Shown in pieces: positions 34,241-60,033 of a stretch of DNA of 64,000 nt; position 1 is the first letter of the stretch, and each line of letters opens with the position of its first letter. A program made the translations under genes and the position numbers. The notes beneath the pieces were generated by a model. It did not search any database, was not told the DNA's origin, and saw only the letters and a program-made list of their open reading frames with translations. The DNA lies in IMG/VR virus record IMGVR_UViG_2852079565_000004, positions 55,005 to 119,004 of that record, one strand, 5' to 3'. Origin of the DNA: a virus. Taxonomy: Duplodnaviria > Caudoviricetes.

Positions 34241-34284
34241 CCACCACCCATCAATATGATTGATCCACATAGCTATACCGATAG

Positions 34285-34776: not shown

Positions 34777-34957
34777 TGTTAGTCTCTCTTAATTTGAATT
34801 CTTTCCGCTTGTAGTACCAATTCACCAAGAATGTAGCGACCGTACATAAAATACCGACGATTACTGCCCATTGATCTAGTGTGAAAATACCAAATATGGA
34901 TGTTAGAACACCCCATATGATTGCAGCAGGGCTTGAGTATTTTTCGTGCATACGCAT
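34757..34957 (-). CDS. Class II holin with Met-Arg-Met dual start
   Basis: 2 [11 protein letters not shown] tail; ATG CGT ATG at 34957/34951. Confidence 0.85.
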
Positions 34958-35083
34958 ATCCACCCCCGATGGAGTGTTCCTGTAAGGTCAATATTTAAAT
35001 GCTTATGAAGTCAATTTATGGAAGAAAAAAGCCGCTATATCTAATAGCGGCCAATAATACGATAAAAATCCATATTAAAGTTA

Positions 35084-36301
35084 CTATTTTCTTTTAGATA
35101 GTGACTCTATTAGTGATGCTAGTTGTTCAAGGCCATCAAAAGTTGATGGTATATTATTTTCATTGAGTTGAATATTTGAAAATATAATATTTTCGAATTT
35201 CTCTAATGCTTCACGATTATCTTTTGTTTTAGAAAAATCAGAGTAGTTATCAACAAACATACACAGATTTTTCCTCAAATTTATCTGGGTTAGTTCTGCT
35301 TTTATAGAGTTATAATTCTGTAGGGAAACTCTAAAAAAATATAAAGAAATAATAGTTAAAGCCGAATAACCTATGTATTTAAATATCATAACATCATTAA
35401 ATTCATCGGCTTTTTCCGTGATTATTTTATATCCTATAGGGCATATGGAAACGAAAGCCAATAGAAATAAAATAGCTAAAGAAATCCATCGTTCTTTACT
35501 TTTAGAACTATATATATCATGATAAGCCTTTGTCAATCCAGCGAAATTATATCCAGAAGACAAATTCTCCAAATATTTTTTTAATTCATCAATCTTTTTT
35601 TGCTTAACTTCTAGATCATCTTTTATAAATTTTGATTTCTCATTAAATAAGTCTTCAACTTCCTCGTTAAAATCAGTAACCTTATTACCTATGAGAACAA
35701 TCTCTTCATGTTTTAAATTTATATTTTTTTCTATTTCAGTTAATCTCTCAAAATCACTAAATTTAGAATCAAACACAAAATTCAAATTTCCGATCAAAAT
35801 ACTATATATATAACCAGAGTACTCATCTATTGAATATTCAAGATAAAACTTTACTCTATCTTCAAGAAATAGAAACAAATGCCTATTCTTCTTTAAATAG
35901 CGAACTCTTTCAGATAATATATCATTCAACATTCCATCAGGAACAACAATCAGGTATTCTATTATGTACCTTATAATTATAATATAAGATAACATTATAT
36001 TGCTTGGTGTGTCAGTTTTTATAGCCAACCTGAAATTACCAGTAATCTTACAATACTCATCAAAGCTATTAATTCTATCTAATGCAATATCTATTGTTTC
36101 CCTTACTTCACCAATAAATTTCGCTAAACAAGACTTCGTTTCTTGATCTAAGCTAGTAGTCTCATCAATCAAAAATAATTTATACAAGGCATCATCTTTC
36201 TCTAAAAGATTTTTAATCTCTATCAATGAATTTTGATATGACTCTAAATGTCCTAATTTCCCGCTCATTACTTTCCTTAAAATACAAAAAAAACAAATCA
36301 A
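35084..36301 (-). CDS. Moron: coiled-coil + 2-TM hypothetical protein (likely start 36268)
   Basis: Very low GC; between Q/pR' and holin. Confidence 0.75.
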   Translation of the reverse strand: MICFFCILRKVMSGKLGHLESYQNSLIEIKNLLEKDDALYKLFLIDETTSLDQETKSCLAKFIGEVRETIDIALDRINSFDEYCKITGNFRLAIKTDTPSNIMLSYIIIIRYIIEYLIVVPDGMLNDILSERVRYLKKNRHLFLFLEDRVKFYLEYSIDEYSGYIYSILIGNLNFVFDSKFSDFERLTEIEKNINLKHEEIVLIGNKVTDFNEEVEDLFNEKSKFIKDDLEVKQKKIDELKKYLENLSSGYNFAGLTKAYHDIYSSKSKERWISLAILFLLAFVSICPIGYKIITEKADEFNDVMIFKYIGYSALTIISLYFFRVSLQNYNSIKAELTQINLRKNLCMFVDNYSDFSKTKDNREALEKFENIIFSNIQLNENNIPSTFDGLEQLASLIESLSKRK

Positions 36302-36389
36302 TAAGTTAAGTATAAATGAGAAGTAAACTCTTAAGAATTTTTATATCACAAAATAGCAATATTTCCCGAAATATTTTTATCATAGTTAA

Positions 36390-36483
36390 CAAAAAACCCA
36401 GCGCATTGGCTGGGTTAGTCGGTGAAGTTACTAAAATGGCAACTTACCTTGAAATAGTGGCTCATTGGCTCAAAGAAGTCAAC
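36390..36483 (-). promoter_or_regulatory. Late promoter pR' and terminator tR'
   Basis: TTGACT...TATTT at end of Q; AACCCAGC-N5-GCTGGGTTTTTT hairpin. Confidence 0.6.
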
Positions 36484-36995
36484 ACGTTCTTACTATTATT
36501 TTTCTTTTTCCACTCATTATCGCGTATTTTAAATGCATTATAGAGATGTGGGTAAATTAAATACTCTGCAGAACGAATAATTTCTTTTACCTCACGACGG
36601 CATGTGGCCATCGAGGGTTTTCGATATTCAAGCGTGCGATTTCTGCGAAGCATTTGCCGTGGCTGTGCAATACCATAATAATAACGAGCAATGGCACGGT
36701 CGGAGCTCACAAAGGCATAACGTAATAACAATAATGTGAATGCAATTCGGTCTATATGATAAATTTTATCAACCACCTTGGTGATTAACATTCCATCGTC
36801 GTCATTACACATTTCCCTTTCTGGATAATCACGCTTTTCTACAGTTGCCATAAATTCAGCAATGATACTGCTTTGGCGTTTCTCTAATCTACCGCTGTAA
36901 ACCCAAGCACCAAACTTGGATAGCCAACCTTGTAACCAAGCTTCTTGCTCAGCATCAAGTACAAGCCCATCAGAAATACTTTTTATACTCGACAT
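36462..36995 (-). CDS. Late antiterminator Q
   Basis: WLSKFGAWVYSG, MCNDDDGMLI; position before lysis genes. Confidence 0.82.
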   Translation of the reverse strand: MSSIKSISDGLVLDAEQEAWLQGWLSKFGAWVYSGRLEKRQSSIIAEFMATVEKRDYPEREMCNDDDGMLITKVVDKIYHIDRIAFTLLLLRYAFVSSDRAIARYYYGIAQPRQMLRRNRTLEYRKPSMATCRREVKEIIRSAEYLIYPHLYNAFKIRDNEWKKKNNSKNVLTSLSQ

Positions 36996-37297
36996 GCTCG
37001 CAGCTCCATGACTTCTCTTTTGGTTTGCTCAAGTAGTTCACTCTCAGTACCGTGAATTTCTTGCCATGTTTTAGGCGCTGCATGAAAACCAGTATCATAA
37101 GTAGGTCTGTGATGAGGCGGGCATAACGGTAAAACATCTTTATGGCTAGCTCTTTGCGCCATTCCCTGCCCCGTTCTTACATGATGGATTTCCGCGGGGC
37201 TTGCTCCATACCCCATATTACGGCAGCAAATGCAGCCAAGTTCTGCTACATCCGATAGCCACTGTTTATCTTCTTTAGCCTTTGATTTTTTGGTCAT
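36983..37297 (-). CDS. Ref-like HNH/Zn protein
   Basis: GCICC, AEIHH, LPLCPPHH. Confidence 0.8.
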   Translation of the reverse strand: MTKKSKAKEDKQWLSDVAELGCICCRNMGYGASPAEIHHVRTGQGMAQRASHKDVLPLCPPHHRPTYDTGFHAAPKTWQEIHGTESELLEQTKREVMELRACRV

Positions 37298-37308
37298 TGG
37301 TCTTGCCT

Positions 37309-37902
37309 CTAGGTAAAATCTAATAACTGAGCCGCCGCATTTTCAGCAGCTTCTTGGGTGGGGAATTTACGAAATAAAATGAAGTTCCAAAGCACATCGA
37401 GGGTTGATTTGTAGAGTTCGCCAAAGGCTAGGTCATCCATTTTGGCAAAGCTAATTGATTTGGCTACACGGCGTAGGCTACCGTCTGGCATTTCAAAGGT
37501 TTCATAATGGCCTGATTGCTCTACCACCCAATAGCGGAAAGCATCAAAGGATTTGGTTGCTGATATATTGTGAGCACGTTTCTGAGCTATCTCATCGAGA
37601 TAAACATCTGCAGCGGATTGGAGAGCATCATCGTTATCGGTGTAGTAAGCGAGGAATTTAACGTAACCGCGTACTAGCTCTTTTTCTTCAGGCGAAATAG
37701 TGCCACCGGTTGGTTCCCAGTATTCATACCCTAGATTGAATAAAGCGAAGTATTTACGGTGGAAACGCGGGTTACGAGCTTTCTTGAAATCAGCAGAAAG
37801 CACATCACCACACTTGATTTTTGAATGTAAGAAATCTCTCGCAGCGGGGTTAGCCGGCACAAGAGTGTCGTTAGACATTTTGATAAAGCTATGCTGTGCC
37901 AT
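37309..37902 (-). CDS. DUF1367 (NinB-like) protein
   Basis: RNPRFHRKYFAL, KSISFAKMD. Confidence 0.85.
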   Translation of the reverse strand: MAQHSFIKMSNDTLVPANPAARDFLHSKIKCGDVLSADFKKARNPRFHRKYFALFNLGYEYWEPTGGTISPEEKELVRGYVKFLAYYTDNDDALQSAADVYLDEIAQKRAHNISATKSFDAFRYWVVEQSGHYETFEMPDGSLRRVAKSISFAKMDDLAFGELYKSTLDVLWNFILFRKFPTQEAAENAAAQLLDFT

Positions 37903-38008
37903 ACGTTTCTCTCAGTAGACACAGCAAGTGTTAGGATTGGGTGTTCAGACCAATGAGAGTTATTGTATCAGAAATCTTACTTTCTGCAAAAATGATAACT
38001 ATCTAATT

Positions 38009-38896
38009 TTACATGAATAATTTTTTTATTGGCTCAATATATGGCATTATTGCTGATGAAACAGAAGCAGCCCCTCCAGCAATAGTCATTATATCTACTA
38101 GTTTCTCCATAATAATGGATTTGTCTTTAATACCTTTCATTGATTCAAGATTAGGAATCACCTTATCAATAACGTCAGCATCTACTCCTTGATTTTTTAT
38201 TTGTATTAATTCAGAAATTAACTTATCAATCAATTCATTAGATTGAATTTGTAAATTCTGACTAAAATTTTCACTGGCATTTACTACATTAGCATTACCA
38301 TAAATATGGTTATTAAAGGTTTGCGTCACTATTTTTTCGTCTTGTTTTGACAATTTAATATCCTCTATATTCTCTATTTTTCTTTCTATTTCCAATAAAA
38401 ACCTAAGTGTTTTATTTTTTATAGAATCAATTACACTATAACAAGCCATCCTTGGTAAAATCTCATATGCTCTAGTGCAAAAGAAACCTTGATATAACCT
38501 ATTGAATAGAGGTAAAGCTGACATGGGTATATCTCTTACAGGATCATCATCAGCTGAGTACGAAAGTAGACTTTCTATATATGACACTGGATAGTAAACT
38601 TTCCCTGAGCCAAAACTATCCTGTAAAAAATCTGGCAATAAATGCTTATCAATTTGCAGTGCAGAGTGATTCGCACCTGCTCTATTAGAGAAGTCCCCTC
38701 GAATTACAGTGCCTACTATGCGGTAATCAGGAATTGCATCATCACCATCATATCCATCTAACTCTAACTCAGTCCATTTAATAAATGTGTCGTTGTTTAT
38801 CTTATATGCTAACACTGAACATTTACGTAAAATATCCGTTATATTTGAACTTGGATTTAAAATATCATTTTGTATTTCGGAGAAAAGAGATGGCAT
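38009..38896 (-). CDS. AbiTii-domain protein (abortive-infection-like moron)
   Basis: DILRKCSVLAYKI..FIKWTELELDGY..IPDYR; low GC. Confidence 0.78.
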   Translation of the reverse strand: MPSLFSEIQNDILNPSSNITDILRKCSVLAYKINNDTFIKWTELELDGYDGDDAIPDYRIVGTVIRGDFSNRAGANHSALQIDKHLLPDFLQDSFGSGKVYYPVSYIESLLSYSADDDPVRDIPMSALPLFNRLYQGFFCTRAYEILPRMACYSVIDSIKNKTLRFLLEIERKIENIEDIKLSKQDEKIVTQTFNNHIYGNANVVNASENFSQNLQIQSNELIDKLISELIQIKNQGVDADVIDKVIPNLESMKGIKDKSIIMEKLVDIMTIAGGAASVSSAIMPYIEPIKKLFM

Positions 38897-38917
38897 TATT
38901 AGCTCCTATTTTTCTTT

Positions 38918-39259
38918 CTATTCTACCCCCAATTTAAGCTTGTGCCACCCCTTGGTTATCCAGCACTTAGAATCACCATCAAGGCAACATTCCATCACTG
39001 GTAACCGTTCACCACATTTACCACAACAACGATTGGATAATTCCGCAATCTCGCGCTTAAGTCTCGCATCATCATTTCGTATGAGCATTTGAATATATTC
39101 ACTTTCATCATATGGCTCACGTCCTGGTCTACGCAATGCACAATTACGCTTAATCATTTCATGTTCTTCAGATTCAACTTGCCACTGCGGGATAACAAAG
39201 CCAGCTTCACGCTGGCGTTTGCGTTGGGCAGCCTTGCGTTCTGCTGCTGACTTAGCCAT
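38918..39259 (-). CDS. Phage hypothetical Zn-binding protein
   Basis: MAKSAAERKAAQR, CGKCG..CC..C. Confidence 0.75.
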   Translation of the reverse strand: MAKSAAERKAAQRKRQREAGFVIPQWQVESEEHEMIKRNCALRRPGREPYDESEYIQMLIRNDDARLKREIAELSNRCCGKCGERLPVMECCLDGDSKCWITKGWHKLKLGVE

Positions 39260-39295
39260 TGGTCTTGCCTCTTCATATCATTTATATCAACTCGG

Positions 39296-39466
39296 TTAAT
39301 GCACTGAGCAATAACGCTCAATAGATAACTCATCTACTCTAGCGCCACCTAGATTTGCCCAAAATGCTATTGTTGAAAGTACATCTTTTTCGCTTGTTGC
39401 GACAAAAAGAGTTATGAAAGACGTTTGGTTCCATAAACCACTTGCTTTATAAACCGATTTTTTCAT
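39296..39466 (-). CDS. Small hypothetical protein (56 aa, not in track)
   Basis: MKKSVYKASGLWNQTSF...CSVH. Confidence 0.45.
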   Translation of the reverse strand: MKKSVYKASGLWNQTSFITLFVATSEKDVLSTIAFWANLGGARVDELSIERYCSVH

Positions 39467-39579
39467 TTTTACCCCAACTAACTACATTTAATAACCTTAT
39501 GACTAAACGGCCTTATATCCGCTGTAAAGCTTGTAGTTATATGATGGGAACGATTTTATTTTTTCCAAGTGTGTGCGTT

Positions 39580-39810
39580 TCATACCTTCATCACCTCTCG
39601 CCAATGATTTAACCTATCTCTAAAAAATTCCCGATGTACCTCTGGTGCTTTTTCTATTTCAACCAGTATTCGTTCCCTATGAATTTTTCGATTTTTCAGT
39701 TGCCGAATTAGCCGACTAGCGAATAAATCAAGTTGCTCCAGTTTGCGATATTCTTCTGGCCATAAAGCACGGTTATGAGGAAGTCCATCAGGTAAATATT
39801 TACCCGACAT
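39580..39810 (-). CDS. Phage hypothetical protein
   Basis: GAGG RBS; operon position. Confidence 0.65.
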   Translation of the reverse strand: MSGKYLPDGLPHNRALWPEEYRKLEQLDLFASRLIRQLKNRKIHRERILVEIEKAPEVHREFFRDRLNHWREVMKV

Positions 39811-39812
39811 AA

Positions 39813-39986
39813 TTACCTCTGCCTTTGAGGTTTCGGCTCTGGTTGATAAGGTGCTTTGGTTCTTGCCCTTGCTGCAGAATTAAAGCGTTCAATGTGGCAC
39901 GGAGAATGGTCTAAACCATCATCGGGCAATATGGGGTGATTGCTCCGGACGAGTGACTCGCCGGTGATTGAGTCTTTGATTGTCAT
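39813..39986 (-). CDS. Phage hypothetical protein
   Basis: Start after AGAGGCAGACCAA ATG. Confidence 0.6.
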   Translation of the reverse strand: MTIKDSITGESLVRSNHPILPDDGLDHSPCHIERFNSAARARTKAPYQPEPKPQRQR

Positions 39987-40040
39987 TTGGTCTGCCTCTG
40001 TATTAATGGTCACGGCTTGGTCGAGCCTTTTTATCGATTT

Positions 40041-40793
40041 TTATTTGTGGCTGTAATTACCCTTTTTACATAAAATTTTATCTCTTATTTCCTTTATCGC
40101 TTCCTCACCAATTAAACGATACTTACCGTCTTTATCGATGAGTTCAGATGTAGAAATCCCTCTTTTAGCTTGACCCATTAACGGCTTGATTGGTGGGATT
40201 GGTTTCCCCTCTTGTATCTGGTTGTAATAAGCGATCAGCTGCTTTTTGATGGATTCCCTAATCTCTTTATCGGACAAGTTATACTGCGTCATGCGTCGCC
40301 TTGCCTCTGGAACAATCCAATACATAACCGTTGATTTCCAAGGGAATGCTTCAACGGATGGATATCGCCACTCCATGTTGCTATAGCGCTTCATTTCAGC
40401 CATGACCTCACAAACTGAAGGTAGACCCATAGCTTGCATCATTCCCTCGCGACACCAACTGATAAACTTTCCGCAGGATGGGAAAAAATCAGACTCTTGC
40501 TGCCTAGCCACACTCATTCCCGCTTTCAATTGCTCAACAGATGTTATGCCATTTTCGATAAACGCCAGTACCCATTGCCGTTTAGTTGCTGAAATATCGT
40601 CTTGGTTTGAAAACACAGTATGCTTTGCCGCTGGGAAAATTTGCACTAAGTTATCAAACAGCATATCAACCAACTTTTCCGCATGTTCATTGATTCCAGC
40701 AGGTTTATTGATTGGCTGAATTAGGCTCGATAATTTTTTGCCATCTCTGTTTTCAATTGCTGAGAGAAGACTTTTCATAGTGTGTTCTCCCAT
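40041..40793 (-). CDS. Replication protein P-like (helicase loader)
   Basis: KRQWVLAFIENGIT..GM..AR..FFPSCGKFISWC. Confidence 0.85.
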   Translation of the reverse strand: MGEHTMKSLLSAIENRDGKKLSSLIQPINKPAGINEHAEKLVDMLFDNLVQIFPAAKHTVFSNQDDISATKRQWVLAFIENGITSVEQLKAGMSVARQQESDFFPSCGKFISWCREGMMQAMGLPSVCEVMAEMKRYSNMEWRYPSVEAFPWKSTVMYWIVPEARRRMTQYNLSDKEIRESIKKQLIAYYNQIQEGKPIPPIKPLMGQAKRGISTSELIDKDGKYRLIGEEAIKEIRDKILCKKGNYSHK

Positions 40794-41731
40794 GCTTCAG
40801 GGCTATTCCAATGGGCTTGTGCAGGTAAACAATCTTCACCCTGTGGAATTTCAGCAAATTTTAATACCAGTTTGTCCCACTGTTTTCGAAGTGTGCTTGG
40901 GCTAAGAATATTTTTGCACCAAAATGGGTCCTTATTTGCCCTATCAAATAACCGGCAAATCTGCCTGTGCGTTCTGCCGTCAATGGTGCGCATTAACCGT
41001 ACATCATTGGCCCATAACGCCCAGTTTGGTTCTTTTGGTGGATTGATATCGTCATCAGATGCAGATGCATTTTCGTAAAGTTCAGTCACCCGTTTGGATA
41101 TCCACTGCGCACAAAGCAAATCATCCGATGTTCCCCATTGTCGTTTCTTTGCACTGAACACAACGGCATCAGGGTGACGAGCCACAAACGAATTATCATT
41201 CGTGTTTTCGTCAGGTTGTGAAACGACCGGACAAGAAGGGTTTATATTCTCTGTAGTATTCTCTGTTGTAATCTCTGAAGGATCGAACTGCGGATTTGTT
41301 TCACCGCCACCGTCGAATTTGTCTTGTGGCGGCTGTTCATTTTGTTGTTTCGCCAAATCCCCATAGTGACTTTCCCCGATTGCGCTTTGCGCATTTGGGA
41401 GATTATCAATAGGTTGCGTCATAATTTGGTCAAGTTGGTCACAATCTATACGGTAATATATTTTGTGTTCTAAACGCCTATCCGTTTCAATTAAAACCCC
41501 GCGTTTAACAAGATGCTTTCTGGCGGTGAGTTGTTCGCGATAGCTTAACCCTGTTTCGGCCGTAATATCCTCAGATGACTTATAGACCCCTAATTCAGAA
41601 TCCGTTTTATCCTGCCAATAAAATATCTGGCTAAAAAATATTACTGCATTGACGCTACCAAAGCGTTTAACTAGACCAGGGTAGTAAGCCACTGGCCGCC
41701 CAAAATCGAGTAACAAATCTGATGGTCTCAT
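40775..41731 (-). CDS. Replication initiator O-like
   Basis: WANDVRLMR, FWCKNILSPSTLRKQWDKL. Confidence 0.85.
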   Translation of the reverse strand: MRPSDLLLDFGRPVAYYPGLVKRFGSVNAVIFFSQIFYWQDKTDSELGVYKSSEDITAETGLSYREQLTARKHLVKRGVLIETDRRLEHKIYYRIDCDQLDQIMTQPIDNLPNAQSAIGESHYGDLAKQQNEQPPQDKFDGGGETNPQFDPSEITTENTTENINPSCPVVSQPDENTNDNSFVARHPDAVVFSAKKRQWGTSDDLLCAQWISKRVTELYENASASDDDINPPKEPNWALWANDVRLMRTIDGRTHRQICRLFDRANKDPFWCKNILSPSTLRKQWDKLVLKFAEIPQGEDCLPAQAHWNSPEAWENTL

Positions 41732-41732
41732 T

Positions 41733-41957
41733 TCATACCCCCAGCGCTTTAGCGATAGCGCGGCAAGCGTTCTGGTATTGCTCAGGCGTCAGTTTCTTTA
41801 AAAGTAGCTTTTGTTTTTGTTGTTCGTACTGCATGCCAATATTGAGTGCTGCCGCCCTTCTTCCCTCGAAAATATCTTCGATCTGTTGTCTGTCTGCAGG
41901 CTTTCCATTCAATAAAAAACCATTACAGTAGGTAATTAATTCAGTCGTTCTTAGCAT
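41733..41957 (-). CDS. Phage hypothetical protein
   Basis: Start at AGAGGCAAGACCA ATG. Confidence 0.7.
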   Translation of the reverse strand: MLRTTELITYCNGFLLNGKPADRQQIEDIFEGRRAAALNIGMQYEQQKQKLLLKKLTPEQYQNACRAIAKALGV

Positions 41958-41974
41958 TGGTCTTGCCTCTTGAA

Positions 41975-42430
41975 TTAGTGCACGCTGGTCGGGCGTGATA
42001 TTGCATTTAGTGCAGTAATTGCACTATTGATATTTCGTGACATGTCACGTCCCTCAAGTAAAATTTCGGTCATAGCTTCTGCAAATCGCTGTATGGCTAC
42101 TGATGCTAAATAGTTTTTAGTATCTCCTCTTACTCGGGCTAACCTCGAAGCCGGCAACGCCATTTCAATCGCTGGCATCAGCTCTGCTAATTTCTTCATT
42201 GATGCGTTCGAATCGCCTCGTAACCACCGAAATATCTGTTGTCGGTTATTGTTAATCGCTTTCCAATCCGCTTGGCCTCGTTCATCTTCAATCACATGTA
42301 AGCGGCTCTGTGATTTGTCTCGTGTGATTTGTAAATACGCACGGCTTATCTCAATCGCCACGTGCTCTTGACCATGTTCTGTAGCCCAGCTCTCAATTTC
42401 GGAGCGGACAATATCGATATCAAAACTCAT
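41975..42430 (-). CDS. YdaT-family CII-like regulator
   Basis: WATEHGQEHVA, NNRQQIFRWL, LMPAIEMALP; position after cro. Confidence 0.82.
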   Translation of the reverse strand: MSFDIDIVRSEIESWATEHGQEHVAIEISRAYLQITRDKSQSRLHVIEDERGQADWKAINNNRQQIFRWLRGDSNASMKKLAELMPAIEMALPASRLARVRGDTKNYLASVAIQRFAEAMTEILLEGRDMSRNINSAITALNAISRPTSVH

Positions 42431-42452
42431 CTCTGCGTCTCCTGTCGCAAAA

Positions 42453-42470
42453 TTGATTATGAATAATCAG
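42453..42470. promoter_or_regulatory. Putative YdaT/CII operator
   Basis: TTGATT-N6-AATCAG between cro and ydaT (YdaT consensus TTGATT-N6-AATCAA). Confidence 0.7.
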
Positions 42471-42501
42471 TTTTTTAAATTTCTTGTTGATATATTCGCT
42501 T

Positions 42502-42711
42502 TCATACAACTCTCTCATTGCCATTGATGAGCCACGTTGGGTCACAATTTAAAACCTTCGCAATTTCAACAATAAACCGGGGTCTTTTAATAAGACCTGA
42601 TTCGATTTGCTGAATTGATTGCTGTTTTAGCCCAACTCTGTCTGCAAGTTCTGACTGAGTTAAATGGAGCTCTATACGACGAGTCTTAACTCGTTCAGAT
42701 AACGTTTCCAT
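42502..42711 (-). CDS. cro: Cro (434-like)
   Basis: [28 protein letters not shown] closely matches 434 Cro. Confidence 0.92.
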
Positions 42712-42725
42712 CCTCACCTCCTTTT

Positions 42726-42784
42726 ACAATATTTCTTGTATTTAAAAACAAATTAGTTTGTTTGTCAATTACAGGTTTTCTTGT
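42726..42784. promoter_or_regulatory. OR1-OR3 operators (434 type)
   Basis: ACAA-N6-TTGT at 42726 and 42748; ACAG-N6-TTGT at 42771. Confidence 0.88.
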
Positions 42785-42815
42785 AATTATCCTCTAGAGC
42801 TATAAAGGGGTTTAT

Positions 42816-43508
42816 ATGTCAATTTCTGAACGCGTAAAAAATAAAAGAATCCTTCTCGGCCTCACTCAAACAGAGTTAGCCGAAACCGTTGGCACTACAC
42901 AGCAGTCAATAGAGCAATTAGAAAGCGGAAAAACAAAACGTCCTCGCTTTCTACCTGAACTTGCAGCTGCCTTAAAGTGTTCTGTTAGCTGGTTGGTTAC
43001 AGGAGAAGAAGACAAAAACGATACCCTACCTCCTGAAAATGAATGGGGAGGGATAAAGTCTTGGGATAATAAAACGCCTTTGGATTACGATGAAGTGGAA
43101 GTGCCATTCTATAAAGATATTGAATTTGCTTGTGGTACAGGCGGTAGTATTGATGTGGATTACAACGGTTTTAAATTAAGGTTTGCCAAATCAACACTGC
43201 GCAAGATTGGTGCCCCTACTGATGGTTCAACAATTATTTGTTTTCCAGCAAGTGGCGATAGTATGGAGCCTGTAATACCAGATGGTTCTGCTATTGCCAT
43301 TGATGTATCTAATAAAAAAATTATTGATGGAAAAGTTTATGCTATCGATCAAGATGGCTTGAAACGTTTAAAAATGCTTTATCGAAAACCAGGTGGAAAA
43401 CTTATTATTCGCAGTTATAACCGTGAAGAATACGACGATGAAGAGGCTGATGAAAACAGCGTCATGATTATTGGCAGAATGTTTTGGTATTCTGTTCTTG
43501 ATTACTAA
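42816..43508 (+). CDS. cI: CI repressor (434-like HTH + S24 peptidase)
   Basis: [25 protein letters not shown]; ACG cleavage site; GDSMEP. Confidence 0.95.
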
Positions 43509-43517
43509 GGTAACCCT

Positions 43518-44675
43518 ATGGAAAATTTCAAGTTAAAGCTTAAAAATCATGTGGATCATGTAAAACAAGTTGGGCAACATTGCTCAACAGAGGAAACAAC
43601 TAAACAGGCACTAATATTGCCTTTCCTTGATATCCTCGGCTTTAGCCCTTATGACCCTCAAAAAGTCAAAGCAGAATACGGCGCTGATTTCCCCGGAGTA
43701 AAAGCAAATGAGCGTGTTGACTATGCACTATTCTGTCAAGATGTCCCCGTTATGTTTATCGAAGCCAAATGCTATTTTGAAAAATTAGATAACCATTGTC
43801 CTCAGCTTTCTCGGTATTTTAACTCCACTCCTGAAGTTACAATCTCAGCAATAACCAATGGGCTAGAGTGGCGTTTTTTCACTGATTTAAAACAAAAAAA
43901 CGTTATGGACCCTACTCCATTCTTACGCATTAGAATGGATGAAATTAGTGATTCAGACGCAAGCCAATTATTCCGTTTTAGACATGATAAATTCAAACCA
44001 GAAGCATTAAGAACACTGGCTGAAGAGAGCGTATATTTATCTGCTTTCACTAAAACCATTAGCTCAAGCCTCAGAGATGTTGATAGTGAATTCGTTCGCT
44101 ATGTCGCGAGCCGTTCTAATGTTGAAAGACAATTAAATCAGCGTTTTATTGACTCTATTACACCGCTAGTAAAACAAGCCGTTGAGCGTTCTGTTAGTGC
44201 AATGGTGGTTTCAGGCTTATCTGGTAAGTTTACTTACGGTGAAGAGCCTGTTGAAGCAGCAGTAGAGGAAACTCAAGAGTCTAATGAATTAAAAGATATT
44301 ATCGATCCCGATAACCCAAACATTATTACCACAACGACCGAATTAACTTTATTTGAAAAAATAAAGCAGATCACTGGATGTGATGAAATTGAATATAAAG
44401 ATACTGAGTCTTACTTTGGTGTCCTATATCAAGGCAAGGTTAATCGTTGGATAGTTAGATTCTACGATAAGAAAAATAGCGCTTATATCATGGTTCCTAT
44501 AGAGATTACTGATCTGCTAGGTAATGAAATAAAGCGTGCAGGTTTAGAATTAACGAATAATCGAATCACCATTCAATCCCCTGAAGATATATTAAGAATA
44601 ACAGGCATCATTCTTGACTCGTTTGAATACGTAAAAAATGATGAAAACTTCAGAAAAAAATCAGCTAATGAATAA
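43518..44675 (+). CDS. HsdR N-terminal-like PD-(D/E)xK nuclease domain protein
   Basis: EETTKQALILPFL..LG, RVDYAL, FIEAK, ITNGLEWRFF; 9 nt after cI stop. Confidence 0.8.
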   Translation: MENFKLKLKNHVDHVKQVGQHCSTEETTKQALILPFLDILGFSPYDPQKVKAEYGADFPGVKANERVDYALFCQDVPVMFIEAKCYFEKLDNHCPQLSRYFNSTPEVTISAITNGLEWRFFTDLKQKNVMDPTPFLRIRMDEISDSDASQLFRFRHDKFKPEALRTLAEESVYLSAFTKTISSSLRDVDSEFVRYVASRSNVERQLNQRFIDSITPLVKQAVERSVSAMVVSGLSGKFTYGEEPVEAAVEETQESNELKDIIDPDNPNIITTTTELTLFEKIKQITGCDEIEYKDTESYFGVLYQGKVNRWIVRFYDKKNSAYIMVPIEITDLLGNEIKRAGLELTNNRITIQSPEDILRITGIILDSFEYVKNDENFRKKSANE

Positions 44676-44677
44676 GT

Positions 44678-45538
44678 TGTATTAGCTCAGATTTGATCTT
44701 ACATAGCTATGGCACAGAGCTAAATCTAACCTGACAGGGCGCTCTGTGCCAGAAGCAGATGTTAACAAACATTATGAGTCAATTGATTAAGAGATGAAGT
44801 ATCATGGCTTTTTTGACAGGAATTAGTGATTTTTTAAATAGCATTCCTCAATGGTTATCATCATTTATTACCGCTTTGATCGGCGCATTTGTTGGTGGCT
44901 GGTTTACTCTTAAAGGAGTTGACCGCGAGGCTAAGATTACTCGCGCAGAGAACGAAAAAAATTCCCTTGAGTTGCAGTTGTCTGTATTAAAAGGAATTAA
45001 GGGCGAGATATTCACTTTAATGAGCCTATATAATAAAAGAATGAAAAATTCTATTGATAGTATTGGGTCAGGAAAAGCACTTCTTTTTAATTTCCCAGTT
45101 GGAGATGATAACTTTACATTCTATGAGCAAAACGCAAAAATTATTGCAAAATTAGATGACGATGCAAGAGATTCAATAATTAATATTTACACATATGCTC
45201 GTTCGCTAATACAGTCTTTCAAAGGAAACAATCAGCTTCTTGTAGAGTATGAAAAGATCCTTTTTGACATGGCTGATAATAATAAAAATAGAGATATGTA
45301 TGAAAGATTGCACGCTGAAAAAATCGAAATAATGGTGGATTATGCGCAAGGAATAAAAAATATTGATGCAGAACTTAGATATGCTATCAACGAGGGATTT
45401 AGGGTTATTGACCAAGAAATAACGGCACTACAAGTAAAAATAACAAATTTAAAGTCATAAAGGTTACTTCCGCTCTTCGCTCAGACTAGGCTGTCAAGCA
45501 TAGTTCAAAATCTGTCAGTTCAAGTCTGAACTAGTACA
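44678..45538. mobile_element. Non-autonomous mini-transposon-like cassette with one cargo gene
   Basis: Terminal inverted repeats TGTATTAGCTCAGATTTGATCT / revcomp TGTACTAGTTCAGACTTGAACT (18/22); internal CTGACAG-like repeats. Confidence 0.6.
44804..45460 (+). CDS. N-terminal TM + helical hypothetical protein
   Basis: SSFITALIGAFVGGWFT TM; low GC. Confidence 0.75.
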   Translation: MAFLTGISDFLNSIPQWLSSFITALIGAFVGGWFTLKGVDREAKITRAENEKNSLELQLSVLKGIKGEIFTLMSLYNKRMKNSIDSIGSGKALLFNFPVGDDNFTFYEQNAKIIAKLDDDARDSIINIYTYARSLIQSFKGNNQLLVEYEKILFDMADNNKNRDMYERLHAEKIEIMVDYAQGIKNIDAELRYAINEGFRVIDQEITALQVKITNLKS

Positions 45539-45775
45539 AATAAATTTTAATTTATCTATATCCCCCTTGTTCAATAAAGCACAAGGGTTTTTTGTATGTT
45601 CTCTATACTTTCTCCCTCATGTTTTGTTCTCAGTTTAAAGCTCCCTATAACCCATTTGTAGTATTTCCTGCTATTTAAACGTGACCGCCTCCCTGTTTTC
45701 ACAAAATTAAACAAAATAAATCATCCTGTTAAAACAATTAATTACAATTAAAACCACGATGAAATACAATTTAAT

Positions 45776-45818
45776 ACAAATTTAATTGTTTACAGATATA
45801 CAAGATATTTTGTATATT
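45776..45818 (+). promoter_or_regulatory. pL promoter with OL operators
   Basis: ACAA-N6-TTGT at 45776 and 45800 overlapping TTTACA..TATATT. Confidence 0.8.
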
Positions 45819-45956
45819 ACAAACATCGAAACAAATACAGCAAGTGTTTAGATAAGTGTTCAGACTTAAAAATTAGCCCACACCAGGGAAACAGTTAGAC
45901 CAAAACCAGAGGCAAGACCAGACAGCTCGGAAAGACGGGCATTGATTTATAGACGT

Positions 45957-46072
45957 AAAAAAACCCACCGAAGTGGGTTCCTTTACCTCGGGTCGCCGAC
46001 CAAAGCTAACCGAGAGTTCTACTAGCGCGACCAAACGCTAGAAGAGGCAAGACCAATGATAAATCACTGATC
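45957..46072 (-). ncRNA. Predicted antisense sRNA in the pL leader
   Basis: TTGTGC-N17-TAAAAT (46107-46079); two UUUGGUCG-loop hairpins; terminator ACCCAC-UUCG-GUGGG followed by 7 U. Confidence 0.65.
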
Positions 46073-46095
46073 ACAGTTATTTTAAAGGAGCTGCT

Positions 46096-46428
46096 ATGAA
46101 AGCACAACCTAAAACCCTAAGTGTCACCTTATACATTCATGCACAGAAGCAACCTGATGGTTCATATCAATTCAACGCCTATGCATTTAAGTCTGATGTG
46201 AAATCAGGTTTAGGCTTTGTTATTGCTGAACACGTTACTGAAATTCCTTTTACAGAACCAACCAATGCAGAACTTGTTCAGTTAGAAATCAATGCACTCA
46301 AAGCTGAGCAAAGCAAAAATCTTGCTGATGCTCAGGTGAAATCAAGCTTACTGGAAGACCAGATCCAGATGTTGCTCTGTTTGGAAGGCAAACCCATTTC
46401 TAAAACTGACGAACAAATCCCTTATTAA
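46096..46428 (+). CDS. Phage early hypothetical protein
   Basis: AAGGAG RBS; first gene of pL operon. Confidence 0.75.
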   Translation: MKAQPKTLSVTLYIHAQKQPDGSYQFNAYAFKSDVKSGLGFVIAEHVTEIPFTEPTNAELVQLEINALKAEQSKNLADAQVKSSLLEDQIQMLLCLEGKPISKTDEQIPY

Positions 46429-46440
46429 GAGGCAAGACCA

Positions 46441-48405
46441 ATGACAACTTTTATCTGTGTATTTGAGCCTACGACCGAGGCTCGAACCAATGGCGCTATA
46501 CCTTTAACCATCGCTTTCAATGCAGCGAATGCCAAAATTGCGGCAGCAACAGCAATGATTAAGCTATCTGAAGCTTACCCTGATTCTCTGGATAATTTTA
46601 ATATCGATGAGCCGATTATTTGTGAGGATGCTGTCGGTTCCCCTCGCCCTGCGCTCGATCAGTTCGATGAAAAATTTGCACTTGAAAATGAGTTCGACGG
46701 AGAAAAATGGCACCCCATTAAATATAAAGAATTTAAAAAGCTTGCAACTAAACCCCGCGTAGCTGCTTTACTGATGTTTGGTAAAACTCAAATTACTGAT
46801 AAAGAATACACTTCAACATTGAAATATCTCAATGAAAGTAAAGAAGCGCCAAAAATCCGCCATATCGCCACTGGCCTTGCTGAAATCACCAAAGTTTCAT
46901 TAATGGATGCCGAAGCCACGATGGAAATCGCGCAGGCGGTTTATGAGTATGCTGACGATAATGTCACTATCGAAGAGGCTAAGGCGCTTGGTGAAAGTTG
47001 GTTAACCGAGGAACCTGAACTTCCTCCCGCTGAGGACGAGCCTGTCCTTAAACGTGATTATGCCGCACTTGATCTCGAAATTGCCCTCGCGCTCTTGGAC
47101 ATTAAACCAAGCGATGCAAAAAGTGCAGATATTCGCAAAGCAAAAGAACTCATCAGCGCTGAAGATAAGGCATGGAAACGTTTATCTATGGATTTACGCA
47201 CATTCCCTAGCGTTCTAGATATCCCTCGCGAAAGCATCTTTGCACTAGTGGCTGAGGCACGCGAAAAGCCCGAACTATTTGATGATGCGAATGCCCGTAA
47301 AGCGTTTATCGATTCAAAACTTAGTACCAACAGCCCAAAAGTAACATCTCTCGGTAGTGGCCGTTTCGCTGTTGATAATTTAGATGCTAAGCCGGCTAAT
47401 GATGAAACACCTGAGCAACCGGCTAAAACAGAGAAACCAAAGCGCGCCAGCAAGAAAAAAGACACACCGGCTAGAGTAGAAAAAGAACCAGTTGTGATTG
47501 AGACACCTGTTGTTTCTACGCCAATTGCCACTGAACAAGATGACTTTCAACAACGTGCAGCGATACTTGATGAGGTGCTTAATAGCGGTAATACAAACCA
47601 CCTTAATATTTGGAAGCAAGTACAACGTACTGATTCACGCTTTACCAAACCACTTGATGGCATGGGCTTTGTTGGTACCAGTATCAACAGCACCTATATG
47701 TTTATGCGTGCGACTGAAATATTTGGCCCAATAGGTGAAGGCTGGGGTTATGAAATCATTGAAGAAAAAATGATTGATGGAAAGCCCCTTGTCGAGCCCG
47801 TACTCGATGCTCACCATAAACAAGTCGCAATGAGGTTCCTGCGTGATGGGGATGGAACATTACTCTTTGAACAAAATCACTCAATCAAGATCCGCTTTTG
47901 GTACATCATCGAAGGCGAAACTCGTGGTGAGTTTGAGAGCTACGGTGCCACACCTTATCGCTATCAGACTAAGCAAGGAATAAGGACGGACAGTGAAGTG
48001 ATAAAAAAATCACTCACCGACTCAATCAAAAAAGCACTTTCCATGCTGGGCTTTAGTTCTGACGTATTTATGGGAATGCATGATAACCCTGAATATGTGG
48101 CGAGTAATAAGCTCGAGTATGAAATCAAAGCCGCCAGCGATAACGCTGAAGATGCGACCCGCATTCGCAAAGAGTTAGACGAGAAGTTCACGCGACACAC
48201 TGAAACGATGCGCAGTGCAGTGACGCCAAACGAATTACGGGGTATCACATCCACCCTTACCCGTGAAATTTCAACGCATGCCAAGTTGGCCAAACAACGT
48301 GGCGACAGTGAATATGAAAAATATTTAAACGGCCGTTTACGTCGATTAAATGAAATTGAAAAAGAGTGTTTAGACCAACTGAAACAAAAAGAAGAGGCAA
48401 TCTAA
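46441..48405 (+). CDS. Recombination protein: RecE-like N-terminal region + Rad52/Sak-like annealase C-terminal domain
   Basis: YAALDLEIALAL; C-terminal TEIFGPIGEGWGY..KKSLTDSIKKALSMLG..DVF.G. Confidence 0.72.
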   Translation: MTTFICVFEPTTEARTNGAIPLTIAFNAANAKIAAATAMIKLSEAYPDSLDNFNIDEPIICEDAVGSPRPALDQFDEKFALENEFDGEKWHPIKYKEFKKLATKPRVAALLMFGKTQITDKEYTSTLKYLNESKEAPKIRHIATGLAEITKVSLMDAEATMEIAQAVYEYADDNVTIEEAKALGESWLTEEPELPPAEDEPVLKRDYAALDLEIALALLDIKPSDAKSADIRKAKELISAEDKAWKRLSMDLRTFPSVLDIPRESIFALVAEAREKPELFDDANARKAFIDSKLSTNSPKVTSLGSGRFAVDNLDAKPANDETPEQPAKTEKPKRASKKKDTPARVEKEPVVIETPVVSTPIATEQDDFQQRAAILDEVLNSGNTNHLNIWKQVQRTDSRFTKPLDGMGFVGTSINSTYMFMRATEIFGPIGEGWGYEIIEEKMIDGKPLVEPVLDAHHKQVAMRFLRDGDGTLLFEQNHSIKIRFWYIIEGETRGEFESYGATPYRYQTKQGIRTDSEVIKKSLTDSIKKALSMLGFSSDVFMGMHDNPEYVASNKLEYEIKAASDNAEDATRIRKELDEKFTRHTETMRSAVTPNELRGITSTLTREISTHAKLAKQRGDSEYEKYLNGRLRRLNEIEKECLDQLKQKEEAI

Positions 48406-48905
48406 TGACCAAGACAACTGCTATTGCAATGGCTGCTGACTACAGCAAGTTACAACAACTCGTCGAAACAGGTGAATTCACCGCAGAAGATGTTGCCGAT
48501 ACCTTAGAGGGTATCGAGTGTGAACTAGGCGATAAACTGGATGCAATTATGCTTCATGCCCGTAATTTAGAGGGGCAAGCTAAAACGCTGGATGAAGAAT
48601 CAAAACGTTTGGCAGACCGTAAAAAATCATTCGAAAACCAAGTTAAAAACCTGAAAAAATATGCATTGGATTGCTTGTTAACATCAGGCAAAGACAAGTT
48701 AAAAACCACGAAAAATACCTTTACGGCTCGCGCTGGTGTTGTGCGTGTCATCATCGATAACGAAGCAGCTTTGCCCGATGAATTGGTGGATGTTCAGACC
48801 ATTACTGCCCCTGATAAAAAGCGTATTAAAGAAGCAATCGAAAATGGTATTGAAATACCTGGTGCTCACTTAGAAGTCGGTGATCGCTCATTGATGGTTC
48901 GTTAA
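48405..48905 (+). CDS. Siphovirus Gp157-family protein
   Basis: DTLEGI, PDKKRIKEAIENG.EIPGAHL. Confidence 0.85.
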   Translation: MTKTTAIAMAADYSKLQQLVETGEFTAEDVADTLEGIECELGDKLDAIMLHARNLEGQAKTLDEESKRLADRKKSFENQVKNLKKYALDCLLTSGKDKLKTTKNTFTARAGVVRVIIDNEAALPDELVDVQTITAPDKKRIKEAIENGIEIPGAHLEVGDRSLMVR

Positions 48906-48949
48906 TCACTTTAGCGCCCAGCAATGGGCGCATATCAGGAGATATTTTT

Positions 48950-49129
48950 ATGGCCATGAAATTAGAAGTCATCATTACTCACGATGAAACTAACAATAAA
49001 TGCAGCGTTGAGTGGACCACTGCATCGACTCAACAAGTCACTCGCCAAGAAGAACAAACGCTATCACTGGTAAAAAAGGCATTGTTACTTCAACTGGGTT
49101 ACCCAGCGGCACACACTGTTATCCATTAA
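48950..49129 (+). CDS. Small hypothetical protein (59 aa)
   Basis: AGGAG RBS; MAMKLEVIITHDE...VIH. Confidence 0.6.
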   Translation: MAMKLEVIITHDETNNKCSVEWTTASTQQVTRQEEQTLSLVKKALLLQLGYPAAHTVIH

Positions 49130-49158
49130 CATGACATGTCACAAACGAGGCAAGACCA

Positions 49159-49329
49159 ATGCTAAGACACGAACATCAAAAAGACCAGGAAGTCAAAATC
49201 ACCCTACCCGATGGCTCGCACGGGTTTGTTTCAACAGATAGACGTTGCAAGGTTTCTTATGACTTTCCTGCACATATTAGAATAGAAATACAGCCTACTC
49301 AGGCAGAACTACAAAGGAGTAAACAATGA
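49159..49329 (+). CDS. CsrA/RsmA-like small protein (56 aa, not in track)
   Basis: MLRHEHQKDQEVKITLPDGSHGFVSTDRRCKVSYDFPAHIRIEIQ... pattern-aligns with CsrA ML..GE.LMI..V.V..VRIGVNAP..V.V; starts at GAGGCAAGACCA ATG. Confidence 0.55.
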   Translation: MLRHEHQKDQEVKITLPDGSHGFVSTDRRCKVSYDFPAHIRIEIQPTQAELQRSKQ

Positions 49330-49499
49330 TTTATGGTTTATTCCTGCTAAATTGCAGTGGTGCTGATTGTTTATATAAATCTAACGGCTATACCTATCCC
49401 GATGAGCAGAATTGTTTAATGGATAAAGACGCCCTAACTCAACGAGGTGTTTTGTCTGAATGCTATCCCATCGAAGCAATTATTCGGGCCAATAATTGA
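49326..49499 (+). CDS. Small Cys-rich protein (DUF1482-like)
   Basis: MIYGLFLLNC..C..YPDEQNC..ECYPIE; AAGGAG RBS, ATGA overlap. Confidence 0.65.
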   Translation: MIYGLFLLNCSGADCLYKSNGYTYPDEQNCLMDKDALTQRGVLSECYPIEAIIRANN

Positions 49500-49571
49500 T
49501 TAAGCATAATTAGTTTTATTCTGCATTTTTTCTTACTGTGGTGGTTTATTCAAAACCAATGGATAACCACC

Positions 49572-49778
49572 ATGAAACAACCACAATTAACCCCTTGGGC
49601 ACCCGAGGAACAGTTATTAACTGAGTTTGATATTAAGTTAGGCAAGCTAGCTGCCAGTGTAAAAAACAGACCATGTACAAAAGCTAATATCAAGCATGCC
49701 TGCAACATTGCTGACCAACTTATTTTATTAATGATGAGGCAAGACCAAGATGAGACAAAATATCACAGAAGGCTATGA
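49572..49778 (+). CDS. Phage hypothetical protein
   Basis: 68-aa ORF. Confidence 0.55.
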   Translation: MKQPQLTPWAPEEQLLTEFDIKLGKLAASVKNRPCTKANIKHACNIADQLILLMMRQDQDETKYHRRL

Positions 49779-49822
49779 TTTATTTCTCCGCGACATTAAG
49801 CAAGCGGATATGGGAGGAAATT

Positions 49823-50032
49823 ATGTTATATGAATGTTTGCCTATTTCCGCATACTGCAATATGTACGGAGAAACACCAGAGTCCATTAATAAGCGCATA
49901 CAACGGCAATATTGGATAGTCGGTGTACATGTTTTAAAAGTTGAGGGTTCAAAAGAACGTTGGATTGATATTGCTGAGGTGAATAAGTGGGCGCGAAAAA
50001 ACAAACAGGCTACGCACTACCAAGAGGGGTGA
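49823..50032 (+). CDS. xis: Excisionase
   Basis: CLPISAYC..GET..INKRIQR..W..GVHV..ERWID..VNKWAR; GGAGG RBS; overlaps int. Confidence 0.82.
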   Translation: MLYECLPISAYCNMYGETPESINKRIQRQYWIVGVHVLKVEGSKERWIDIAEVNKWARKNKQATHYQEG

Positions 50033-51168
50033 CGGTTCGTAACAACAAAACCAGCCAAACTATTGTTATCACGTTTACTTATAGAGGGGCGCTCTGTAGA
50101 GAGCCTCTCTCTAGATTAACCGTCGATAATAAAAACATTAAATACGCTGAAAGGTTGCTCGCTGAAATTCAAAATAACATTGAAAAAGGCACTTTTAACT
50201 ACGCTAAATATTTTCCTAACTCTAAAAAATTAATGCTTTTTGGTGTTAATAATCGTGAAAAAAGAGTAATTGATTATTTAGATGAGTATTTAATTATTTG
50301 CGAAACGCGAAATTTATCACCCTCAACAATTGGGGGTTATAAAAAATGCAAAAGTGCCTTATCTGATTTGCACCAACTACATGTTTCATCACTAACACCG
50401 GCGATCCTAAAAAACTGGATACAAAAGCAAACGACAGTATTAAAAACTATCCGTAACCAGCTCTCATTTTTGCGTAGCTCGCTAGATGAAGCCATTACCG
50501 ATGGGATAGTGTCAATTAACCCAGTAAGCCTTGTATCCGCTTCAAGGTATCAATCAAATAACAGTGACAATGAAAGCAGTTATATTGTTGACCCATTGTC
50601 ACCTAAAGAAGTCTCTGCCCTACTCGCTGCGGCAAGATATGAACAATGGAAAAACTTATTCCAGTTTGCCATTAATACAGGATTAAGAAGCTCTGAACTA
50701 TGTGCATTGAGATGGAGCGATATCGATTTCATAGAAAACACTGCACACGTGCAATCCGCCAGCGTGGTGGGTGTTATTAAGAAAACCAAAACTAAAGCCG
50801 GCACCAGAAAGGTTGAATTGAATAATGAGGCCATGAACGCCCTAAATGAGCAGAAGCAATTCACGTTCTTGAAAGATGGTGTGATTTTTGAAGACCCAAA
50901 AACAAATAAAGCCTGGGCTGGCGCTGATGCGATCAGAAAGAAAGCATGGGTACCAACGCTGAAGAAAGCAGGAATCAGATATCGTAATCCTTATCAAACG
51001 AGACATACCTTTGCCACAAGACATATTAGCCAAGGTGCTAATCTGTTTTGGCTAGCTGGACAAATGGGGCATAAGGGGCCTGAAATGTTGTTTAGACATT
51101 ATGGGGGATATCTTAAGGAATATGATGTGGGTACAGTGAGTCAAAAAGTAACCCGTTCTTTAATCTAG
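49987..51168 (+). CDS. int: Tyrosine integrase with arm-binding N-domain
   Basis: TGLRSSEL, YQTRHTFA, QMGH, HY catalytic motifs. Confidence 0.95.
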   Translation: MGAKKQTGYALPRGVTVRNNKTSQTIVITFTYRGALCREPLSRLTVDNKNIKYAERLLAEIQNNIEKGTFNYAKYFPNSKKLMLFGVNNREKRVIDYLDEYLIICETRNLSPSTIGGYKKCKSALSDLHQLHVSSLTPAILKNWIQKQTTVLKTIRNQLSFLRSSLDEAITDGIVSINPVSLVSASRYQSNNSDNESSYIVDPLSPKEVSALLAAARYEQWKNLFQFAINTGLRSSELCALRWSDIDFIENTAHVQSASVVGVIKKTKTKAGTRKVELNNEAMNALNEQKQFTFLKDGVIFEDPKTNKAWAGADAIRKKAWVPTLKKAGIRYRNPYQTRHTFATRHISQGANLFWLAGQMGHKGPEMLFRHYGGYLKEYDVGTVSQKVTRSLI

Positions 51169-51346
51169 CTTGTGATACCCTCAGCTATTCTAGATGAATT
51201 TGCTATAGATAAACAAGCTGAACTGTATTATTAAATTTACAAAAATAATATAGTAACTATGTGAAATACTTAATAGAATGTTATGGTAAATAAAATGAAT
51301 ATCTATTATTTAAATGACCATTCCTTATTTGGAAATTAGTTGACAC

Positions 51347-59835: not shown

Positions 59836-60033
59836 GCAAATAATTAACACTTTAGATCGGTTATTGCACATAGCAGCACATGTAACTCTGACCAATCGTG
59901 ACAGAAAATCTTATGTTTATTTTAACTATAAAAAAGACCGCCTAGGCGATCTTTTATGAATAACTGATATAGCTCAGATGAAAAGTTTAACCTGACCATA
60001 AGTTTATTAAAGATTAAGAGTGAACATCATTCT

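Follow-up and report, generated by a model that had tools for sequence, protein, structure and literature searches.

The window analysed here, a stretch of 64,000 nucleotides within a 119-kb viral record, includes a lambdoid prophage of the Providencia type, in whose two early operons the following features were recognized:

37298-37309 (-), predicted target site before a Ref-like gene (36983-37297), the end of which overlaps the start of the antiterminator Q gene (36995-36462)
39260-39271 (-), predicted target site before a 113-aa phrog_536 gene; 18-nt complement, the best start region of the prophage
39984-40027 (-), variant site with one base missing, accompanied by a GACCA-loop hairpin; a 57-aa ORF follows, downstream of P
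41958-41969 (-), predicted target site preceding a 74-aa ORF, with a GACCA-loop hairpin (41981-41997) on its upstream side; the ORF stops 1 nt short of the start of the replication initiator O (41731); 17-nt complement
42816-43508, cI
45789-45818 (+), predicted pL promoter, overlapped by an operator-like palindrome (45799-45814)
45909-45920 (+), motif copy in the pL leader, lacking a start codon and located upstream of the sRNA gene
45957-46072 (-), predicted 116-nt antisense sRNA with a 5' stem, an exposed anti-SD stretch, two UUGGUC-loop hairpins and an intrinsic terminator
46044-46055 (+), motif copy inside the antisense gene, templating the anti-motif of the sRNA
46079-46107 (-), predicted sigma-70 promoter of the sRNA, with -10 TAAAAT (46079-46084) and -35 TTGTGC (46102-46107)
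46429-46440 (+), predicted target site before a 654-aa YdfE/RecE-like recombination gene (46441-48405); 18-nt perfect complement
48393-48407 (+), degenerate site before a Gp157/Gam-like gene (48405-48905); 11-nt complement, the sixth best start region
49147-49158 (+), predicted target site before the 56-aa gene; 15-nt complement
49159-49329 (+), 56-aa protein (phrog_2482), distantly CsrA-related and itself in the proposed regulon
49736-49747 (+), predicted target site ahead of a 27-codon ORF (49750-49833) running into the excisionase gene (xis), which starts at 49823

The 654-aa gene corresponds to phrog_2489, whose homologues carry PF27430 YdfE_N, and the Gp157/Gam-like gene to PF05565; the pL palindrome matches two cro-cI intergenic sites (42725-42740 and 42770-42785). 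The element common to these early genes is the 12-mer GAGGCAAGACCA, present in eight exact copies in the window compared with 0.01 expected by chance, and none of 100 shuffles reached two. All eight copies lie on coding strands within the two early operons, at the positions where a first-pass annotation of this DNA had placed them, and the two variants (39984-39999 and 48393-48407) and two GACCA-loop hairpins (40014-40027 and 41981-41997) that it listed were also found. No further copy was detected in the whole 119-kb record with one mismatch allowed, and none at late genes, 20 of whose starts have ordinary, variable SD spacers. An ATG immediately follows the motif in six of the eight copies, not in seven as previously counted, and one of these six opens a mere 4-codon ORF (46056); the copy at 49736 is separated from its start by a 2-nt gap, and that at 45909, predicted to be an extra target or a decoy, is of a kind also found as orphan copies in relatives.

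Conservation in related prophages was evident as well, with the motif ahead of some 20 unrelated gene families. The family of the 74-aa ORF alone accounts for 169 motif sites, the gene of the 57-aa ORF displays the exact motif in relatives, where the motif also lies directly at xis starts. Across relatives the motif-to-ATG distance ranges from -1 to +5 while the 12-mer itself is constant, which speaks for a binding site and against an SD-AUG spacer of set length; as a Shine-Dalgarno sequence the motif is modest (-5.8 kcal/mol). Separately, in one relative the motif immediately precedes a 267-aa gene, apparently Q-like from its N-terminus.

The copy at 46044 is embedded in the predicted sRNA gene, whose predicted promoter overlaps the first gene of the pL operon (110 aa) at its RBS and start. 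Its -10 box (TAnAnT) is invariant in 28 of 28 homologues and precedes the conserved 5' end by 7 nt, and the -35 box is weak and variable; an alternative promoter with TATCAT at 46056-46061 was discarded, since many relatives lack it, in contrast to the invariant box at 46079-46084. The sRNA strand folds with an MFE of -47.7 kcal/mol (z -5.3), compared with -31 for the sense strand, and the minus strand is the better folder in all 28 homologues, the predicted length across relatives being 113-136 nt. In the alignment of these homologues, 98% of cells are paired, with double changes at 9 pairs, and the 5' stem depends on minus-strand G-U pairs, one pair being U-G in 27 of 28. The anti-motif is invariant while the stems vary freely, and the loops are invariant on both strands. 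Part of the anti-motif is buried in the 5' stem, a point counted against the sRNA model. In many relatives the ATG after the copy at 46044 is replaced by ACG, ATA or ACA, and the 4-codon ORF is probably a by-product of the anti-start-codon. Two further candidates were set aside: the svsR RNA of prophage NC-SV, a different RNA located in cI, and a second match of our own RNA model at 59930-60039, which is terminator-like and AT-rich.

Five start regions are complementary to the sRNA over 15-18 nt. Among 142 candidate starts, its seven best partners are the seven tagged genes, with pairing energies of -22 to -34 kcal/mol for tagged starts and at best -19 for late genes. Two alleles were distinguished among 209 related loci: where the RNA is C-type, target position 5 is C in 118 and T in 5, and where it is A-type, position 5 is A in 103, plus two probable chance sites; the position-5 T is nearly confined to loci whose RNA has G. 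Cognate pairing beats cross-allele pairing by 5-8 kcal/mol, with SD strength equal for both alleles. The C/A switch may have happened no more than two or three times among related phages. Of 20 inner target changes, 13 retain G-U pairing; changes compatible with wobble are transitions, and when transitions alone are considered the excess (13/15 vs 70% expected) is not significant. After the core, the RNA copies read ATG, ACG, ATA or ACA in 203 of the 209 loci, all of them AUG-pairing, and some loci deviate (TCT, CAA).

Since the tag of seven early genes is the exact complement of a conserved sRNA gene, one RNA probably represses them together, and we consider it likely that the motif serves as the common target of a prophage antisense sRNA. 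By this reading of the sequences, recombination, replication, excision and late-gene activation would probably be held down jointly by one RNA. The first-pass annotation had reasoned that the motif is recognized on RNA by a shared trans-acting reader and defines a post-transcriptional early-gene regulon, and both proposals gain support from the strand-following orientation, the conservation across gene families and the covarying hairpins. As for the reader, which it left unnamed, the evidence indicates an antisense sRNA specified opposite the copy at 46044 and not an initiation signal as such, and it favours repression.

The same annotation labelled the 56-aa protein CsrA-like, a label that stands through intermediate sequences only: the protein's profile reaches proteins above the PF02599 cut-off, with hhalign giving 97% to one of them. 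In direct searches, Pfam CsrA had no match among 19 close members of the family, and one Klebsiella member gave E 0.048, under the cut-off. The residue equivalent to Arg44 is not conserved in our own alignment, and profile matches to Bap repeats and giant proteins were rejected as short hairpin matches.

Our first idea had been that this CsrA-related protein is the reader, its dimer bridging a GACCA loop and the SD-adjoining GACCA, as RsmE bridges GGA sites, and with the sense pL leader, which has several GACCA loops, as a decoy. This agrees with the sequence chain to CsrA, the five strands plus helix of the protein model, the loop-plus-RBS layout of several targets, and the presence of the gene in 27 of 30 genomes carrying the system, together with its own tag in C-type phages. 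However, the CsrA fold reads 5-6 bases and the motif spans 12-16, the antisense promoter and stem would be left unexplained, and a fold search with the monomer model did not return CsrA (best Z 4.1), although a control with a true PF02599 relative ranked CsrA first. Moreover, the protein does not track the allele, as CsrA-related proteins that share 20-40% identity and differ in their first and last strands accompany the same motif and others about 70% identical accompany different alleles; and Xenorhabdus ehlersii, which has lost the gene by a clean 211-bp deletion, albeit a recent one, retains seven sites. On account of these last two points the protein was downgraded as sole reader, a role we regard as quite unlikely. 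That both act, the sRNA giving specificity and the protein serving as a cofactor, or as an anti-sRNA factor after induction, is unlikely as well: the gene co-occurs tightly with the system and keeps the same place in the pL operon, which speaks for it, and the loops invariant on both strands could bind protein, but co-occurrence is expected from shared descent and one natural deletion of the gene exists. An order-wide sample of 400 genomes contained neither the leader nor the 56-aa protein and is silent on their co-occurrence.

The sRNA might instead act only in cis on the pL leader, by attenuation or decay, as IsrB would in Gifsy, the other copies being short recombination linkers or a copied strong RBS with no regulatory role. 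Gifsy IsrB shows no start-region match over 7 nt and the neighbours upstream of tagged genes change between relatives, both in line with such an origin; yet a cis antisense RNA needs no invariant sequence, and here the anti-motif is invariant while the stems vary, all copies follow the RNA allele, the motif is a modest SD, and the one mapped deletion does not end at motif copies. We hold this explanation to be very improbable.

Under the preferred reading, that of a trans-acting antisense sRNA, a promoter outside the CI operators would yield the 116-nt RNA against the pL leader in the lysogen. Pairing would start from the single-stranded anti-SD stretch on GAGGCAA, after which the 5' stem would open, and the resulting 15-18 bp duplex would mask SD, spacer and AUG; the UUGGUC loops could also pair with the GACCA loops ahead of several targets. 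Any leaky early transcript would thereby be kept from translation, the recombination genes directly, and O, Q and xis via short coupled ORFs. Upon CI loss, pL transcription would cross the sRNA gene and produce its full-length complement plus extra motif copies, which would remove the sRNA and create a threshold switch. The complete scheme, in which a lambdoid group across Enterobacterales would have remodelled the RBSs of its key early genes to a private 12-16-nt address, with an allele-specific antisense RNA, a pL-leader sponge and possibly a CsrA-derived helper, is plausible but tentative.

The system was found across Enterobacterales, with the C allele in phage ZF40, an induced phage, and the A allele in E. 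coli, where 448 of 5426 complete genomes carry it; a literature search on both motif alleles returned nothing relevant, and no paper on the system was found. As far as we found, described phage antisense RNAs guarding lysogeny act on one leader or operon. If the proposal is true, a single phage RNA with near-perfect start-codon sites, located at recombination, replication, excision and Q-coupled genes, would constitute a whole post-transcriptional regulon written in the phage's own RBSs, and a second, RNA-based layer of immunity having specificity groups (C and A) of its own. IsrB-like RNAs would also gain a testable function, the unexplained SAS repeats of other phages would gain a model together with a testable candidate for their reader, and a compact orthogonal RNA-RBS pair would become available.

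Among known systems, P4 CI RNA, C4 of P1 and P7, and N15 provide small structured phage RNAs that pair with complementary sites and so repress lytic functions beside a protein repressor (PMC4825925, PMC3632133), as proposed here; the present sRNA is likewise complementary to sites in lytic transcripts of its own phage. CI RNA is processed from the transcript that it controls and pairs with two sites of one leader, leading to termination, unlike this sRNA, which has its own predicted promoter, is antisense and has at least nine start-codon sites in two divergent operons; in 34000-52000, Rfam gave no match to C4 or IsrK at E up to 5. With CsrA/RsmE (PF02599), the 56-aa protein is linked via intermediates and the loop-plus-SD layout of targets resembles Csr sites, but direct profile and fold matches are lacking and the sites are GACCA, not GGA. 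The SAS of cluster K mycobacteriophages is a 13-bp oriented RBS repeat at non-structural genes, conserved beyond the need of 16S pairing, ATG-biased and in some cases with an upstream element; no reader has been identified and the ESAS repeats were judged to be DNA sites (PMC3203893). The motif shares with SAS the orientation, the restriction to non-structural genes and the conservation beyond SD pairing, but is a different 12-mer in an unrelated host, and its upstream elements are short hairpins with a matching RNA gene, unlike the ESAS DNA sites. The closest relation is to IsrB-1 and IsrB-2 of Gifsy-2 and Gifsy-1 (RF01386), expressed antisense in Salmonella lysogens (PMC2330248) and included among ProQ-associated RNAs, with lysogeny as the likely field of action (PMC5391140); no IsrB target was found in the literature consulted, and Gifsy presents neither matching start sites nor a repeated RBS tag. 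The Rfam isrB match of the sRNA (E 0.046, 30.3 bits) is below the 35-bit gathering cut-off, and our own model finds Gifsy IsrB at E 5e-5. The 3' half of the sRNA is homologous to IsrB, both having the same UUUGGUCGG-loop hairpin and terminator and lying antisense within the pL operon upstream of a recE-like gene; IsrB comprises 88-94 nt with one loop, whereas this sRNA, at 113-136 nt, additionally possesses a 5' stem, a second loop and a stretch of anti-RBS sequence.

This is the early region of a lambdoid prophage, probably of Providencia; its close protein relatives are in Providencia and Proteus. Genes are called tagged where a 12-mer repeat, or a variant of it, occupies the ribosome-binding site.

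One arm: cI (42816-43508), O, P, NinB, a Ref-like gene and Q
Opposite arm: a 110-aa gene, a YdfE/RecE-like gene, Gp157, xis and int
O: starts 1 nt past the end of a tagged 74-aa ORF
Q: overlaps the end of the tagged Ref-like gene
xis: overlaps a tagged 27-codon ORF
46072 to 45957, minus strand: predicted 116-nt antisense RNA, opposite the pL leader
49159-49329, plus strand: tagged gene for a 56-aa protein
39580-39810, minus strand: gene resembling DNA polymerase III theta, coupled to a tagged 57-aa ORF ahead of it
38009-38896, minus strand: AbiTii-domain gene, an insertion within the nin region; it has a ribosome-binding site of its own and lacks the motif
43518-45460, plus strand: two cargo genes behind cI, one encoding 385 aa with an HsdR N-terminal domain (PF04313), the other encoding 218 aa and matching no family; possibly a defence pair expressed in the lysogen
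35084-36301, minus strand, and 51347-52513, plus strand: large AT-rich ORFs, of 405 aa behind Q and of 388 aa behind int, neither matched in Pfam or PADLOC

The repeat is real and conserved. A count against chance, proposed by the first-pass annotation, gave eight exact copies in the window against 0.01 expected, all at the positions it had reported. Its claim that seven of them directly precede an ATG held for six, one of them opening an ORF of 4 codons; a 2-nt gap follows the copy at 49736, and the one at 45909 has no start codon. No copy had been noticed in late genes, in agreement with the ordinary, variable Shine-Dalgarno (SD) spacers at their starts and with the remainder of the 119-kb record, which holds no further 12-mer with one mismatch allowed.

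Conservation in related prophages was likewise borne out: the motif occurs in prophages of Providencia, Proteus, Morganella, Xenorhabdus, Photorhabdus, Yersinia, Serratia, Rouxiella and Pectobacterium and, with A instead of C at position 5, in those of Klebsiella/Raoultella, Serratia and E. coli. Some 20 protein families have it in front of them, at distances of -1 to +5 from the ATG. The 12-mer stays the same while this distance changes, which marks it as a binding site rather than as a tuned spacer. As an SD its strength is modest, and equal for the C and A alleles. Single matches in Alteromonas, Reinekea and Paraferrimonas (L122, L128, L154, L155), all within one conserved coding context, were rejected as chance hits.

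In an Rfam scan, the minus strand of the pL leader matched isrB below threshold, and an alignment of 28 diverse leaders, the basis for the anatomy given here, made a complete antisense gene visible there. A -10-like box, TAnAnT, invariant in 28/28 leaders, lies 7 nt before the conserved 5' end of the RNA, which consists of a 5' stem followed by an exposed stretch, a pair of hairpins whose loops read UUGGUC, and an intrinsic terminator. The 5' stem depends on G-U pairs, where the opposite strand would have A-C mismatches; folding of the window RNA scores z -5.3, and the stems covary, with 58 cells showing double changes compared with 16 after shuffling, which as a control takes no account of relatedness. 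Both loops match YUNR, a motif associated with the initial contact between RNAs (PMC2943612). A model of the RNA finds Gifsy IsrB in its annotated orientation (E 5e-5); IsrB is an 88-94-nt antisense RNA seen on Northern blot (PMC2330248). The A allele was counted in 448 of 5426 complete E. coli genomes. An A-allele system is carried, for instance, by an E. coli ST131 prophage at a tRNA Gly-Cys-Leu site (L342, NZ_CP103672.1 near 2.266 Mb), with a predicted RNA of 136 nt for which the record has no annotation.

The leader also carries another conserved hairpin, (CT)GACA-stem-GGAAAGAC-stem (45921-45940, plus strand), which has 67 covarying variants in related loci and is at times present in tandem; the loop retains GGAAAGAC in C and A allele groups alike. 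It may serve as a protein-binding site of the boxB-like or GGA type. The pL operon contained no recognisable N-like gene.

A shared trans-acting reader had been proposed for the motif, and the RNA of the same locus, a candidate for that role on sequence grounds, is predicted to pair with the tagged starts. Complementarity is perfect over 15-18 nt at five start regions and 11 nt at a sixth, and in a duplex-energy ranking of 142 starts the top seven are the seven tagged genes, both variants included. Target position 5 tracks the RNA of its locus across 209 loci, with counts that are not independent of one another: 118 C and 5 T for C-type RNAs, and 103 A, plus two probable chance sites, for A-type RNAs. 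The allele switch may represent two or three events. By energy, cognate pairing is 5-8 kcal/mol better than pairing across alleles. Of 20 inner changes in the targets, 13 still allow G-U pairing, more than the random share but not more than a transition-only null.

The 56-aa protein might instead be the reader that sets the 12-16-nt specificity. Its earlier label, CsrA-like, holds by way of intermediates: a search with its profile reaches proteins that pass the PF02599 cut-off, hhalign gives 97% to one of these, and that protein in turn retrieves CsrA by sequence and by fold. In the predicted structure of the 56-aa protein the expected helix and five strands are present, but a fold search with it did not retrieve CsrA. 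In 27 of 30 genomes the gene is found along with the leader; the three without it are a tiny contig, a truncated prophage and a clean recent deletion. That deletion, in Xenorhabdus ehlersii (L207:17200-17320), removes 211 bp with the gene and its ribosome-binding site relative to L224, a 95-97% identical prophage that keeps it, and we read it as a natural knock-out. Versions of the protein that differ widely are found with one and the same motif, and closely similar versions with different motif alleles. The protein is unlikely to set the specificity; it could be a cofactor or release factor.

We consider it probable that the motif system is an antisense-RNA regulon over early lytic genes. Small RNAs that pair over the SD and AUG repress their targets, and because the predicted pairing here covers both, repression would be expected. 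In the lysogen, the RNA would most likely be transcribed from a promoter outside the operator-like sites covering pL and pR, occluding the SD and AUG of leaky early messages; pL transcription would then yield its full complement plus extra motif copies, most likely removing it. The three committing genes, O, Q and xis, are untagged themselves and placed behind tagged ORFs, an adjacency or overlap that suggests translational coupling; relatives carry the tag immediately upstream of xis itself and of a DnaC-like gene. Such a regulon would be surprising in scale, and is open to simple reporter and allele-swap tests.

Our literature search on the motif and regulon found no paper describing either. 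The motif resembles the start-associated sequences of cluster K mycobacteriophages, for which the study describing them identified no reader (PMC3203893). The RNA is homologous to IsrB, but falls below the family cut-off and outside the family length. Gifsy IsrB (L204:5964-6081 and L205:14321-14438) is without the 5' domain and has no such target start regions or partner start sites; by our reading, a TAGAAT -10-like box lies behind its mapped 5' end, and this RNA may represent either a reduced or an ancestral state. Although not a member by sequence, the RNA is like the P4 CI and P1 C4 antisense controls in its proposed mode of action (PMC4825925, PMC3632133).
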